Shown piece after piece: positions 791 through 5,052 of a stretch of 5,052 bases of DNA (within the stretch, counting starts at the first letter, position 1; each line of letters begins with the position of its first letter). This DNA comes from a virus. The stretch lies in IMG/VR virus record IMGVR_UViG_3300029179_000122, positions 1 to 5,052 of that record; one strand, 5' to 3'. The notes below the pieces were generated by a model that worked only from the letters and a program-made list of their open reading frames with translations, was not told where the DNA came from and searched no databases. Position numbers and translations under genes: made by a program.

Positions 791-1309
791 ATGAAGAAGA
801 AAGAAGAGATTTTGAGTTCTCACAAGTTGAATGTGGTTGATGTTGTTGAGAAGGAGACTGGTTTTTCTCATACTGGTGTTCGTCGTTTGCGTGTTCAGTT
901 TGGTTATGAGGGTTGTCCTACTATGACAGAGCAGCATACTGCTCATTTGACTGATCTTAATTATTTGATGGAGAAGTATAAGCCTGATGAGTTGGCGGCT
1001 TATATTGCTGCTCGTGCTTCGTTTAGGCAAGAGATTTTGGGTCATGATTTTGCTAGTGAGTATTCTTTGCAAGAGGGTAAGAATTTGGTTTATAAGCTTC
1101 GTCGGGCTTTTGAGGATTTGCCTGAGGATATTAAGAAGCATTTTAAGTCTCCGCTTGATTTTATTAAGTTTATGGATAATCCCAACAACGCTGATAAGGC
1201 TGTTGCTTTGGGTATTCTAACGCGTAAGCAGTTAGATGATGTTAAAGATCCGAGTAAACCTGGTCCGGCGCCGCAGCCGGCGCCGGATTCGGATGATAAA
1301 AAAACGTAG
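791..1309 (+). CDS. VP3: VP3 internal scaffolding protein
   Basis: 172-aa ORF. AGGAGG at 781-786 lies 4 nt upstream of ATG 791. The segment CPTMTEQHTAHLTDLNYLMEKYK resembles the (S/T)xT(E/Q)Q....D(I/L)N.(I/L)..KY core I remember from Chlamydia-phage-type scaffold proteins. Size and position (after VP2) fit. The C-terminal tail PSKPGPAPQPAPDSDDKKT uses atypical CCG/GCG codons (see findings). Confidence 0.8.
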   Translation: MKKKEEILSSHKLNVVDVVEKETGFSHTGVRRLRVQFGYEGCPTMTEQHTAHLTDLNYLMEKYKPDELAAYIAARASFRQEILGHDFASEYSLQEGKNLVYKLRRAFEDLPEDIKKHFKSPLDFIKFMDNPNNADKAVALGILTRKQLDDVKDPSKPGPAPQPAPDSDDKKT

Positions 1310-1457
1310 GTTTTTTTGGTTATGTAGCGATGCTTACCCCGCATTTCCGCGGCCACAGCTTCGACGACGACGACGTAGGAGGAGGAGGAGTTGCGAGGAC
1401 CGCGCGCGGGGGAAGCGAGCGCCGCAGATGCGAGGGGGTGCAGCTCCCAGCATCTAG
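1236..1457 (+). CDS. Candidate overprinted arginine-rich ORF (73 aa; 24 Arg + 4 Lys, includes R9); speculative
   Basis: ORF from the track, in a different frame from VP3, overlapping its last 74 nt and extending 148 nt beyond the VP3 stop. Nine consecutive Arg codons (1362-1388) come from two different repeat families (CGA x4, CGT, AGG x4) held in one frame. No convincing Shine-Dalgarno sequence precedes ATG 1236/1239 or the internal ATG 1293. CG-rich DNA also produces Arg-rich frames by default. Confidence 0.2.
   Translation: MMLKIRVNLVRRRSRRRIRMIKKRRFFWLCSDAYPAFPRPQLRRRRRRRRRSCEDRARGKRAPQMRGGAAPSI
1362..1390 (+). repeat. Adjacent trinucleotide microsatellites (CGA)4-CGT-(AGG)4-AG
   Basis: Read directly: cgacgacgacga (1362-1373), cgt, aggaggaggagg (1377-1388), ag. 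The three frames read RRRRRRRRR, DDDDVGGGG and TTTT*EEEE. Confidence 0.9.
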
Positions 1458-1459
1458 GC
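1421..1459 (+). other. GC-rich imperfect hairpin in the VP3-distal non-coding region
   Basis: Hand pairing: GCC 1421-1423 with GGC 1457-1459; AGATGC 1426-1431 with GCATCT 1450-1455; GGGGG 1434-1438 with CTCCC 1444-1448 (one G.T). 5-nt loop TGCAG, two small internal loops, ~14 bp in total. Function unknown. Confidence 0.6.
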
Positions 1460-1461
1460 TT

Positions 1462-1540: not shown

Positions 1541-1558
1541 TTATTAGGGAGGTGCTCG

Positions 1559-1576
1559 ACGGGAGTATTCTCCCGT
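1559..1576 (+). other. Small hairpin ACGGGAG-TATT-CTCCCGT
   Basis: 7-bp stem (1559-1565 / 1570-1576) with tetraloop TATT. It lies 35 nt upstream of ATG 1611 and covers the alternative GTG 1575. Confidence 0.6.
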
Positions 1577-1610
1577 GAGCAAACAAGCCGTAGGCGCGTT
1601 AGGAGTTTTT

Positions 1611-2478: not shown

Positions 2479-3498
2479 TTGAAGTGTAAAGACCCTACGT
2501 TATGTTACACAAATTCTAAGGGTCAGAGGATTTATCGTCATTGGTCCATGGCTAGTTTTATTTTTCGTCAGATTGCTCAGCGTGTGTTTGATTGTGGTAA
2601 GTGTCTTCATTGTCGTAAGAAGAAGGCTCGCGAGTTGGCTATTCGTTGTGTGTTGAATGCTAGTTTGTATACTCAGAATTCTTTTTTGACTTTGACTTAT
2701 GATGAATCTAAGGAAGGTTATCATAATAATTTTCAGTATGAGGATATTCAGAAGTTTAAGAAGCGTTTTCGTTCTTATGTGAGTCGAGTTTTTGGTAAGC
2801 GTATAGAGTTGTTTAATGTTCATGAGTACGGCAAGAATGGTAAGAAGCATTGGCATTTAGTTTGTTTTGGTCATGATTTTTCTGATGATGTTTTAAAGAA
2901 GCGTCGTGTGACGCGTGAGATTTATACTTTTCGTAATGGTAATTTTTTGTATACTTCGCCAAAGCTGGAAGATCTTTGGCGTTTTGGTTTTTCAACTATT
3001 GGTGATGTGACTGAGGCTTCTGCTATGTATCAAGCTCAGTATACTCAGAAGGATTGGAAGAATTGTAATGTTGGCACATCTAGGCAGTCTGATTCTCAGC
3101 ACTCCGGTATTGGACGTTCTTATTTTTTGTCTCATTATTCCCAAATATTACGTCTTGGTTTCATACCTGTTGGCGGTAAGCGGGTGCCTGTTCCCCGTTA
3201 TTTTGAGAAGTTAGCTCATAAGCATTATTGTCATTTTTATGATTGTTCTTATTTTTTTGATACTTCCGAGCGTAAGCGTCGTTATACTCCGTTTGAGGAA
3301 GGTCAAGAGAATCGCGATATTGCTGATTTGTATATGGTTTATAGGGTTAATAAGGATAATCGTATTTTGGAAATGGAGGATGAATGGAATGATATTGTTG
3401 ATTTGCATTTAGAGACTGGTGAAGATCCTGATTTTGTTAAGTCAGGTGATAATTCTTTGTATGATTTGCGTAATAAGAATAATATTGAAATTTTTTAG
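2479..3498 (+). CDS. VP4: VP4 rolling-circle replication initiation protein (phiX174 gpA-like HUH endonuclease)
   Basis: 339-aa ORF. RCR motif 1 FLTLTY (2683-2700), HUH motif HWHLVCF (2848-2868), and two-tyrosine motif YQAQYTQK (Y codons 3028-3030 and 3040-3042). The N-terminal K-C-x-x-P and CGKCLHCR Cys cluster are as in other Microviridae Reps. Start uncertain: TTG 2479 is the only start between the in-frame TAG (2470-2472) and ATG 2548, and it has no clear SD. Confidence 0.92.
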   Translation: MKCKDPTLCYTNSKGQRIYRHWSMASFIFRQIAQRVFDCGKCLHCRKKKARELAIRCVLNASLYTQNSFLTLTYDESKEGYHNNFQYEDIQKFKKRFRSYVSRVFGKRIELFNVHEYGKNGKKHWHLVCFGHDFSDDVLKKRRVTREIYTFRNGNFLYTSPKLEDLWRFGFSTIGDVTEASAMYQAQYTQKDWKNCNVGTSRQSDSQHSGIGRSYFLSHYSQILRLGFIPVGGKRVPVPRYFEKLAHKHYCHFYDCSYFFDTSERKRRYTPFEEGQENRDIADLYMVYRVNKDNRILEMEDEWNDIVDLHLETGEDPDFVKSGDNSLYDLRNKNNIEIF

Positions 3499-3506
3499 GA
3501 GGATTT

Positions 3507-5052
3507 ATGCATTTAAAGACAGATACTTCGAGAGAAGCGCATTTTGCTAGGGTTCCTACTATTTCTAGATCTCGTAATGCTTTTTCTATTGCTAAGAAGC
3601 ATATTACTACTATGCAGTTTGATAATTTAGTTCCTTTGTATGTTAAGTATATGCAGCCTGGTGATACGTTAAGTATTTCTGCTGGTTTTATGGCTCGTTT
3701 GGCTACTCAGATTTCTGTGTTGTATGATGATTTGTATTTTGATGCTCATGCTTGGTTTGTTCCTCATCGTTTGATTCAAACTAATTGGGCTCGTTATCAG
3801 TTTAACGCTCAGCCTGGTGGTCCTTCTCAGGATAATAGTGCTTTGACGAGTCCTAAGATTGATTTAACTGGTTTAACATCTGGTTTTGCTGCAAAGTCTT
3901 TTTATGATTATATTGGTATTCGTCCTGCTACTGCTAGTTTGGCGGCATCTACTCAGCATATTAATAATTATGCTGGTCGGGCTTATAATTTGATTTTTAA
4001 CGATAATTATCGTGATCAGAATTTGCAGTCTCCTCGTGTTGTGGATTTGGATGATGGTCCTGATGCTCCGTCTGACTATGCTACTTTGGCTAATCGCGGT
4101 AAGCGTCATGATAAGTTTACTAGTGCTTTGACTGCTCAACAGAAGGGTTCTCCTGTTTCTATTTCGTTGGGTAGTACCGCTCCTGTTGTTTCTACTGGTA
4201 CTTTTCGGATGTCTAGTAATCCTGCTAGTTTTACTCGTGATATTGAGACTGGTGCTGATTCTTTAGGTCTTCGGATTGATGGTACTGCTACTGGTGTTGG
4301 TATTGCATTACAGTATGCTTCGGGATTGGCTACTGATTTAGCTTCTGCTACTTCTATTACTATTAATGCTCTTCGGACATCTGTTGCTATTCAGCATTTG
4401 TTAGAGGCTGATTCTCGTGGTGGTACTCGTGATGTTGAGGCTATTCAGCATCGTTATGGTGTTACTGTTCCTGATTTTCGGCTTAATCGTCCTGAGTATT
4501 TGGGTGGTATGACTTGGACTTTTGATGGTCATGTTGTTCCTCAGACTTCAGAGACTGATAATACTCCTCAGGCTACTTTGGCTCAATTTTCTCAAGCTCT
4601 TAATTTTATGGATATTAATCATAGTTTTGTTGAGCATGGTGTTTTTATGATTTTGGTTTCGGCTCGTAGTAATATTACTTATCAATGTGGTTTGCCGAAA
4701 GAGTTTTCTTATCGTACTCGTTTTGATTGGTACCAGCCTGAGTTTTCTAATATTGGTGAAGTTGCTATTAAGAATAAGGAAATTTATTTTACTAATAATG
4801 ATACTAATAATGAGGCGACTTTTGGTTTTCAAGAGTATGGTTATGAGTTGCGGTTTGATGATAATATGGTGACTTCAGAGATGCGGTCAGATTTTCCGAC
4901 GTCTCGAGATTATTTGCATATGGCTGATGATTATTCGTCTTTGCCTACTTTGTCGGCTGGTTGGATTCAGAGTAATACTCCTATTTCTCGTAATATTAAC
5001 GTTTCGGCTGCTGTTGCCGATCCTATTGAGATGAGTTGTTTTATTAAGGGTA
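3507..5052 (+). CDS. VP1: VP1 major capsid protein (F-like); 3'-partial in the window, wraps to 1..152 for 532 aa in total
   Basis: AGGAGG at 3497-3502 lies 4 nt before ATG 3507. My hand translation is open from 3507 to the window end and continues across the overlap to TGA 150-152. Recognised Microviridae capsid motifs: SRSRNAFS...QFDNLVPLYVKYMQPGDT, WFVPHRL, INALRTSVAIQHLLEADSRGGTR..EAIQHRYGVTVPDFRLNRPEYLGG, ATFGFQEYGYELRF. The ~530-aa length and a large S/T/G/A-rich insertion are Gokushovirinae-like. Missing from the ORF track because it has no in-window stop. Confidence 0.95.
   Translation, partial: MHLKTDTSREAHFARVPTISRSRNAFSIAKKHITTMQFDNLVPLYVKYMQPGDTLSISAGFMARLATQISVLYDDLYFDAHAWFVPHRLIQTNWARYQFNAQPGGPSQDNSALTSPKIDLTGLTSGFAAKSFYDYIGIRPATASLAASTQHINNYAGRAYNLIFNDNYRDQNLQSPRVVDLDDGPDAPSDYATLANRGKRHDKFTSALTAQQKGSPVSISLGSTAPVVSTGTFRMSSNPASFTRDIETGADSLGLRIDGTATGVGIALQYASGLATDLASATSITINALRTSVAIQHLLEADSRGGTRDVEAIQHRYGVTVPDFRLNRPEYLGGMTWTFDGHVVPQTSETDNTPQATLAQFSQALNFMDINHSFVEHGVFMILVSARSNITYQCGLPKEFSYRTRFDWYQPEFSNIGEVAIKNKEIYFTNNDTNNEATFGFQEYGYELRFDDNMVTSEMRSDFPTSRDYLHMADDYSSLPTLSAGWIQSNTPISRNINVSAAVADPIEMSCFIKG
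4954..5052. repeat. Terminal redundancy: exact copy of 1-99
   Basis: Identical to 1-99 over all 99 positions. It lies inside the VP1 coding sequence. Confidence 0.95.

Follow-up and report, generated by a model that had tools for sequence, protein, structure and literature searches.

Why does a gokushovirus-type microvirus carry, directly behind its scaffolding gene, a stretch of DNA far richer in G+C than the rest of its genome? The genome is that of IMG/VR record IMGVR_UViG_3300029179_000122. The window, that is the whole stretch analysed (5052 bases), comprises a circular genome of 4953 nt plus a 99-nt terminal overlap, with every gene on the + strand. The gene of the internal scaffolding protein VP3 (791-1309, +; 172 amino acids (aa); Pfam Chlamy_scaf, E = 6e-17) ends in a TAG stop at 1307-1309 and is followed by an intergenic region (IGR) of 301 nt. 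The initial annotation had described a GC-rich island (1250-1460) and counted about 90 G+C among the 133 bases of 1328-1460, and this count is exact (90/133, 67.7%, versus 40.5% genome-wide); the highest 133-nt G+C elsewhere is 52%, windows overlapping 1200-1500 being excluded. The compositional shift that it placed inside VP3 from about 1250 was also found, as 1250-1309 has 60% G+C. We identify the region, with good confidence, as a hairpin cluster typical of the clade, which has taken in what used to be the end of VP3. With moderate confidence we further read it as a cis-acting hairpin stack in the 3' untranslated region (UTR) ahead of a terminator, at the hairpin-dense end of the structural (VP1-VP2-VP3) operon.

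A fossil of the VP3 tail

Three stop codons, all TAG, lie in the VP3 frame (1307-1309, 1325-1327 and 1376-1378), and reading on through them gives ..DSDDKKT-stop-VFLVM-stop-RCLPRISAATASTTTT-stop-EEEELRG... The island had been noted to contain (CGA)4 and (AGG)4 microsatellites. Their coordinates are correct, and what had been missed is their identity as fossil VP3 tail codons: in the VP3 frame they read ACGx4, TAG, GAGx4 (T4-stop-E4; 1364-1390, +), at the apex of a hairpin that we named H1. The clade consensus for the C-terminal tail is ..TPTTTQEEKEKK, a clear TT(T)QE tail is found in at least 31/120 homologues with variants in many more, and at the DNA level the tail of the relatives is ACGACGACGACG-CAG-GAGGAGGAG. 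The TTTTQEEED codons of one relative (L054) are identical to the window at 26/27 bases. In the protein alignment, the ASTTTTxEEEE of the window falls on the TTTTQEE of 14 relatives, and the fossil tail is preceded by an insert of about 27 residues that contains the first two stops. The repeats are therefore the fossil of the canonical tail T4-Q-E4, still in the VP3 frame, in which CAG (Gln) has become TAG.

About 200 VP3 homologues were found at E <= 1e-10, the closest non-identical ones sharing 55-65% identity, and we fetched the DNA of 20 relatives found via VP3 homology. The whole-genome maximum of 100-nt G+C lies no more than 60 nt from the VP3 stop in 7/16 genomes (15 relatives and the window). 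The first 150 nt past the VP3 stop have 54-65% G+C in six relatives whose genomes have 37-50%, and the last 60 nt of VP3 in the relatives are also enriched. Because the peak recurs there, a GC-rich stretch straddling the VP3 stop is a feature of the clade, and the earlier statement that such an element is unfamiliar in gokushoviruses does not stand.

The IGRs of the relatives further contain two recurrent boxes, one consisting of a hairpin and AACAAGCCGTAGGCGCGTTAG, and the other, present in at least eight relatives, of GAGGGTG(T/C)T with an AGGGAG hairpin behind it. The window has the first as the hairpin CGGGAG-TATT-CTCCCG with box AACAAGCCGTAGGCGCGTTAG (1552-1602, +; z = -4.5) and, before it at ~1547-1556, GGGAGGTGCT, a diverged version of the second box. 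The island, the terminator and a 17-bp hairpin (H3) are all located upstream of these two. The hairpin-plus-box stands within ~30 nt of the VP3 stop in L002 and L003/L057, as does a variant in L048. The hairpin followed by AACAAGCCG(T/A)AGGCGCGTTAG is conserved as DNA among distant gokushoviruses (window 1552-1602, L002 2501-2541, L003 1643-1691), including the human-gut gokushovirus PV067905, and the L048 variant lies at ~1746-1787. These boxes are candidate origin or packaging signals.

Constraint on the tract in the relatives

The tract itself appears to be constrained at the nucleotide level. The 15-mer ACGACG[C/T]AGGAGGAG (<= 3 mismatches, mostly 0-1) is found within the last 120 nt of VP3 in 13/20 relatives. 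Nine of the 13 read it as T-T-Q/K-E-E and four read it in the -1 frame, as D-D-V-G-G or a diverged form. T replaces C or A in 3/4 of the -1-frame genomes, the fourth (L048) having a diverged tract, and this T variant would give a TAG stop in the usual frame. In the nine T-frame relatives, the ratio of ACG to other Thr codons is 45:19 in the tails but 12:47 in the body of VP3 (p = 3e-8), and that of GAG to GAA is 24:9 and 33:78, respectively (p = 1e-5).

We then asked whether the flanks of the tract pair with each other, by keeping the tract fixed and shuffling the flanks with their dinucleotide content kept; 107 positions in the same genomes served as the control. The closing stem beats at least 94% of the shuffles in 9/14 genomes (13 relatives and the window), all nine being relatives, and 10% of the control positions pass the same criterion (Fisher combined p = 3e-7). 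The sequence of the closing stem varies between genomes while it encloses the tract. Selection seems to act on the nucleic acid and not on the protein alone, because the tract is kept in two frames, with biased codons and a closing stem.

Predicted hairpins around the VP3 stop of the window

All motifs listed in the initial annotation are in place, namely CCGGCGCCG at 1265 and 1277, CCGCGG at 1347, (CGA)4 at 1362, (AGG)4 at 1377 and CCGCGCGCGG at 1400. The 12-nt duplication (1265-1288) is present, and it additionally forms a perfect 10-bp hairpin (1264-1273/1278-1287), since it is a direct repeat of the palindrome CGGCGCCG. This hairpin, H0 (1264-1287, +), has a GC stem and a 4-nt loop and lies within the VP3 coding sequence (CDS); as DNA it has -15.4 kcal/mol and z = -5.0. 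It is followed by an A7/T7 hairpin (1298-1317, +; z = -4.95) with the VP3 stop in its GTAG loop. H1 (1332-1416, +) is built from the outer arms GCTTACCCCGC / GCGGGGGAAGC, the inner pairings CGCGG/CCGCG and CAGCTTC/GGAGTTG, and the purine-rich apex. H2 (1421-1459, +), previously proposed as an imperfect GC hairpin of ~14 bp, was recovered by folding as an imperfect 14-bp stem. As + strand RNA, H1 has -42.8 kcal/mol and z = -3.8 (0/200 shuffles), and H2 has -23 kcal/mol and z = -2.65 (1/200 shuffles); as - strand RNA their z values are -1.4 and -2.0. The + strand advantage of both is due to G-U pairs. The predicted intrinsic terminator at 1462 has the expected features, a GC-containing 10-bp stem, a 4-nt loop and then T9 (1462-1494, +; z = -5.2). 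Downstream of it lies H3 with 17-nt arms TTCCCTCCTGCAATATT / AATATTACAGGAGGGAA (1501-1540, +; z = -7.9). The whole IGR folded as single-stranded DNA (ssDNA) has z = -6.3. In that form, z values from -4.5 to -7.9 were obtained for five single hairpins, namely H0, the A7/T7 hairpin, the terminator, H3 and the conserved hairpin.

No Rfam 15 family reaches its gathering score in this region, the best being sbrA with 22.5 bits against 45 needed, over the terminator; no family was found in the related loci either, and scans for tRNA and tmRNA gave none. As to a dispersed family of the repetitive extragenic palindrome (REP) type, no other copy turned up in the fetched loci or in 1200-1650, the part of the window that was searched for repeats. 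We also considered a miniature inverted-repeat transposable element (MITE) and rejected it. An 11-nt direct repeat at 1222/1458 (10/11 matches) and a 9-nt inverted repeat at ~1233-1457 are at chance level in 450 nt by our estimate, and searches of phages, IMG/VR, GTDB and metagenomes found no further copies.

The contrast in composition owes much to the genes. The preference for T at codon position 3 had been recorded before, and T is 50-62% and C 1-8% in six of the seven genes tabulated, the VP1 row being out of frame. When open reading frames (ORFs) of 150 aa or more are pooled, 65% of third positions are T, 25% G, 7% A and 3% C (~90% G+T), whereas eleven related gokushoviruses have C 14-37% and A 18-36%. 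The skew is seen in all genes of the window (for example, 149-781, 2479-3498 and 3507-4953). It matches the expectation for C-to-T plus A-to-G change on the viral strand, and either mutation or codon selection may be its cause. Other non-coding stretches of the window keep 14-18% C, with more C and A than the genes. The island has 29% C, with 38/39 of its C residues predicted to be paired, and the unstructured 18-nt spacer 1310-1327 has zero C and 61% T. Thus, the island looks extreme because the genes have been driven to such a G+T excess at position 3 and the hairpins keep the GC-rich make-up of the clade. The last 19 codons of VP3, DPSKPGPAPQPAPDSDDKKT (1250-1306, +), are GC-rich with G 53%, T 32% and C 0% at position 3, and NNG codons are likewise enriched in the canonical tails of relatives. 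Coding ends at 1309, as these 19 codons have no C at position 3, unlike the frames of the island.

A probable cis-acting hairpin stack in the 3' UTR

The stretch 1310-1461 sits between the VP3 stop and the predicted terminator, in agreement with the claim that the island is the 3' UTR of the structural operon, and it lies on the viral strand, so that its presence in the packaged ssDNA was rightly assumed. We propose that the tract, together with the stems on either side of it, makes up a cis-acting hairpin, which would normally overlap a dispensable VP3 tail, and that in the window genome this hairpin may have been released into the 3' UTR. The hairpin cluster is enlarged here because VP3 ends early. 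H0, H1, H2 and the terminator would act jointly as a folded + strand nucleic acid. Most likely, the RNA form would be a stable 3'-terminal hairpin stack, which would support termination and shield the late mRNA from decay in the 3'-to-5' direction. On packaged ssDNA, this fold could serve complementary-strand initiation. The stability of the + strand RNA and the position directly before the terminator tilt us towards the RNA 3'-end role, which we hold weakly; on present data, it is indistinguishable from a complementary-strand origin.

Several points weigh against the hairpin stack as we propose it. We infer the function of the fold from sequence, and the transcript end is a predicted one. As ssDNA (+ strand), H1 (z = -0.7) and H2 (z = -1.1) are no more stable than shuffles. 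The closing-stem test of the window itself was not significant (16-19/100 shuffles), since its GC-rich flanks pair in any order. With RNA parameters, the closing-stem result of the relatives is similar on both strands, so this strand-symmetric inverted-repeat signal is silent on whether RNA or DNA is the active form. The relatives are too distant, at the VP3 identity given above, for covariation within the island. In most of them the hairpin lies in translated sequence and is therefore no simple 3' UTR element there. Finally, trinucleotide slippage that homogenizes the runs, and not selection, could be behind the codon bias of the tails, at least in part, although it would leave the closing stems and the link between frame and T variant unexplained.

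A broader reading is more tentative. The apex hairpin (ACG)n-YAG-(GAG)n may be a true, undescribed cis-acting signal of gokushoviruses, common to at least two other microvirus lineages, which serves as an origin or as a loop bound by protein or ribosomes and dictates the codons of the tail. Such a signal could be a complementary-strand initiation site, or an exposed Shine-Dalgarno-like/GGA-rich loop for ribosomes or a CsrA-type protein. Embedded in VP3, it would dictate even the reading frame, with CAG leading to T/Q/E and TAG to D/V/G or to early termination.

The tract outside the VP3 clade

The exact 20-mer of the tract has 0 matches in IMG/VR, 4 in GTDB genomes and 20 in metagenomes. The four GTDB matches are all in bacterial contigs of 65-73% G+C, and we judged them to be chance. 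In Apis mellifera associated microvirus 58 (MH992186; L001), 25/25 bases, ACGACGACGACGTAGGAGGAGGAGG, are identical, TAG included. They lie in a GC-rich, strongly folded non-coding island (1880-2135), which has a hypothetical protein gene on one side and the pilot protein gene on the other and is bracketed by the inverted repeats TTGACACCACGTGTT / AACACGTGTGTCAA, and the genes of this virus likewise have a T/G-skewed position 3. We rejected homology of that island past the 25-mer, as its flanks match no better than shuffles and the upstream ORF has no detectable VP3 homology. A third microvirus lineage (L035, 1141-1156, and L202, 934-947) has TAG(C/G)GACGACGTAGGAGGA in an IGR hairpin loop. The major capsid proteins of these two are 50% identical, and the L202 tract stands directly after the stop of a 133-aa ORF.

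A shared 21-23-mer is found in two further contigs. In L014, an inovirus-like Zot contig, the tract (3613-3633, - strand) lies 20 nt past the last gene of the Zot operon. In L025, a 2.8-kb contig of a Rep_1 rolling-circle plasmid, it lies in the loop of a perfect 15-bp hairpin (1915-1975), 29 nt past an ORF; three rolling-circle plasmids related to L025 lack it. The tract is also present in a low-GC (33%) bacterial contig, in a Roseovarius leader region and in an element beside an integrase, and unrelated eukaryote-like microsatellite contigs have identical matches of 25-27 nt. We therefore downgraded the idea of a motif specific to ssDNA replicons, in view of the microsatellite matches, the non-ssDNA contexts and the tract-less relatives of L025, and the cross-family matches may be taken as a lead only.

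The integrase-side element is conserved and structured in six metagenome contigs (L012, L016, L017, L018, L020 and L024; ~4947-4967, - strand, in L024), beside a tyrosine integrase. Its GACGACGACGUAGGAGGAGG pairs with the upstream CUCCUAGCGUCGCUCAC, and a terminator-like hairpin follows. It has the appearance of a leader or of a small RNA and would sequester a Shine-Dalgarno sequence; it matches no Rfam family. In addition, a 1.8-kb iteron plasmid of Moraxella osloensis (AP031483, 1186-1250; L044) and an IMG/VR contig (L117) have in common an ORF tail ..TATTTTTTQEEEKAERRRR, coded by (ACG)5 CAG (GAG)3. Thus, the same low-complexity tract arises outside microviruses.

Alternative explanations

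Every ssDNA replicon requires a start signal for its complementary strand, and the island might itself be this (minus-strand) origin, which we regard as possible but not probable. GC hairpins on the incoming ssDNA would escape the single-strand-binding protein (SSB) and recruit RNA polymerase, primase or PriA, and the purine-rich apex would be the recognized loop. Such a signal has been proposed to reside in hairpins of microvirus IGRs whose loops are conserved and whose stems compensate (PMC9865509), and the single-strand origins (sso) of rolling-circle plasmids are folded, orientation-dependent, movable cassettes of ~160 nt (PMC5703833). In every case the coding (viral) strand carries the tract, two other microvirus lineages (L001; L035 and L202) have the exact TAG version of it in the loop of an IGR hairpin, the tract follows the Zot operon of L014 and sits in the Rep_1 plasmid hairpin of L025, and the IGR as a whole is strongly folded as ssDNA. 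However, H1 and H2 alone are unremarkable in that form, the phage collection holds no similarity to the origin of phiX174, G4 or another phage, and the plasmids related to L025 do without the tract. The non-ssDNA and microsatellite occurrences mean that some of the shared matches are chance, and the boxes at 1552-1602, which are better conserved, are alternative candidates for the role. Less probable still is that the island is a functionless fossil, VP3 having been shortened by a nonsense mutation or an insertion and its old tail being now neutral filler, whose decay is perhaps delayed because paired bases mutate more slowly in ssDNA. Consistent with this, three in-frame stops and an insert of ~27 codons leave no protein constraint, nearly all C residues of the island are predicted to be paired, and the closing-stem test of the window is not significant; moreover, the length of the island is lineage-specific, relatives placing the conserved boxes directly after VP3. 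On the other hand, the spacer has no C, yet the island retains 29%, H1 and H2 fold as + strand RNA significantly better than shuffles, and the tract of the relatives is under nucleotide-level constraint inside closing stems.

Extra coding capacity, which the initial annotation had raised as an overprinted gene, is largely refuted, and we give it very little weight. It could take the form of an 82-aa ORF (1330-1578), a 73-aa ORF (1236-1457), a -1 frameshift to DDDDVGGGG or a read-through with TAG as Gln. Gene callers do accept the 82-aa ORF, the -1 frame is open over 1300-1578, four relatives truly read DDVGG (diverged in L048), and the three in-frame stops are all TAG, the third exactly on the conserved Gln. 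Yet no frame has the codon signature of the genome: in the three frames of 1328-1460, C makes up 27, 18 and 42% of third positions and T 9, 20 and 9%, compared with 3% C and 65% T in the genes. Many frames are open on both strands of the island, as expected of GC-rich DNA. A search of 5.8 billion proteins with the 82-aa ORF returned only the ORF itself, PHROG matches are lacking for both this ORF and the Arg-rich 73-aa one, and the island has no Pfam match. The 82-aa called gene is almost certainly spurious, judging from its codons and lack of homologues, and the Arg-rich ORF as a J-like protein was ruled out by codon composition and missing homologues. Frameshifting on the A7 run was rejected, as the in-frame site is T AAA AAA C and not X XXY YYZ with a structure 5-9 nt downstream; the nearest hairpin contains the A run itself, and H1 starts ~28 nt downstream. 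The frameshift product, like any extension of VP3, would cross the terminator. Reading TAG as Gln was rejected too: VP1, VP2, VP4 and VP5 have no internal TAG (code 11), and since VP4 and the 37-aa gene end in TAG, it is an ordinary stop here. Equally hard to credit is that the island is imported DNA or an artefact, whether a high-GC bacterial fragment, a contig of chimeric origin or a recombinational import from a gokushovirus richer in G+C. In composition it stands sharply apart from all other parts of the genome, and in codon usage the fossil is like relatives with 25-37% C at position 3, so that an import from another gokushovirus keeps some probability. However, the same genome was found in the Logan assembly SRR4039768 and in JGI contig 3300029174 with two single-nucleotide differences (2520 and 4216) and zero in the island or the A7/T7 runs, and because the island is identical base for base in separate assemblies, a chimeric junction is unlikely. 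With the genome and the island as queries, near and distant BLAST searches of phages and plasmids gave short low-complexity matches only, and in 185,579 species genomes, plasmids and phages there was no significant match beyond the low-complexity 20-27-mer. The fossil is in frame with the resident VP3, and the relatives have their compositional peak at the same place. The suggestion of a fragment from a high-GC source meets chance-level bacterial and plasmid matches only and an island core homologous to the VP3 tails of relatives.

Genome context

Around VP3, the window contains VP1 (3507, wrapping to ~152), VP2 (149-781), a 67-aa ORF (1611-1814), an ORF5-family gene (1811-2212), the gene of a 37-aa basic protein (2281-2394) and the replication protein gene VP4 (2479-3498), all on the + strand. 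A second strong intrinsic-terminator-like site (GAAGGGCCC-TTTTT-GGGCCCTTT and a T run; 2399-2431) lies between the 37-aa gene and VP4, which suggests at least two transcription units. The promoter scan of the sequence was uninformative (12 found, 11.2 expected).

Where the ORF5-family gene ends and the next IGR begins (2191-2245), the sequence is 87-95% identical over 41-55 nt to MH992183 and MW202895, two microviruses dissimilar to the window elsewhere. By eye, the sequence GGTACTTGATTAATACAATGCCCACTGACAC resembles the phiX174 viral-strand origin CAACTTGATATTAATAACAC. The region 2191-2245 is probably the (+) strand origin with the Rep nick site, which would place (+) origin function outside the GC island.

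Comparison with known systems

The Gokushovirinae are a very widespread group of ssDNA phages, and to our knowledge their cis-acting signals are essentially uncharted. Our literature search on Gokushovirinae turned up no account of a complementary-strand origin, of packaging cues or of transcript ends, and a search for the motif and gokushovirus hairpins returned only PMC9865509, which deals with other clades. The window offers a clear example of a conserved hairpin that overlaps a disordered scaffold tail and constrains its codons, and the clade has three evolutionary solutions to the tract, in which it is read as TTTTQEEE, is read as DDVGG, or is preceded by a stop. The hairpin is a concrete target for mutagenesis in culturable gokushoviruses. 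For annotation, GC-rich islands past VP3 should not be taken as foreign DNA.

Stable GC-rich hairpins between the last stop codon and the terminator are likewise found in intrinsic terminators, E. coli REP elements and the terminator regions of phiX174. Hayashi and Hayashi in 1985 are said to have reported that the phiX174 terminator regions determine mRNA stability. The island shares with such 3' stabilizers its untranslated 3' position and a + strand RNA stability above that given by composition (H1 and H2). Unlike REP, it is single-copy and not a dispersed family. It also differs from 3' stabilizers in that the main hairpin of the relatives overlaps the CDS and has a conserved, purine-rich, Shine-Dalgarno-like apex, and a role in mRNA half-life would be by analogy.

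The phiX174 primosome assembly site, G4 oriC, the Ff minus-strand origin and ssoA/U/T/W are also folded regions of ~150-300 nt on the viral strand in the main IGR. Like them, the region is modular and lineage-specific, with a loop sequence that is conserved and stems that vary across relatives. Unlike them, the island has no sequence match (1240-1620 matched none of the Bullavirinae among 50,697 phage records), H1 and H2 are unexceptional as ssDNA, and a priming role is suggested by analogy. For structure of the ssoA type (~160 nt, viral strand), the whole IGR scores well as ssDNA and H1 and H2 alone do not, at the z values given above. The CS-6 consensus of ssoA is TAGCGT, located in a terminal loop. 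The only near match here, TAGCGA at 1326-1331, is located outside any loop, at the foot of H1, and no plasmid sso was matched. An RSB sequence also exists in sso elements (PMC5703833).

A likeness in form is found in the IGR hairpins of reekeekee- and roodoodooviruses, which have identical loops and diverged stems with compensatory changes, and in which scattered stop codons interrupt a stretch with the look of amino-acid conservation (PMC9865509). The clade and the sequence are different from those here, and in most relatives of the window the apex doubles as codons of the scaffold tail. Compared with cis elements embedded in a CDS, the function proposed here is putative, and trinucleotide slippage could mimic part of the signal. 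As in such elements, however, synonymous codons are bent, with ACG and GAG in excess, and the tract is present in two frames.

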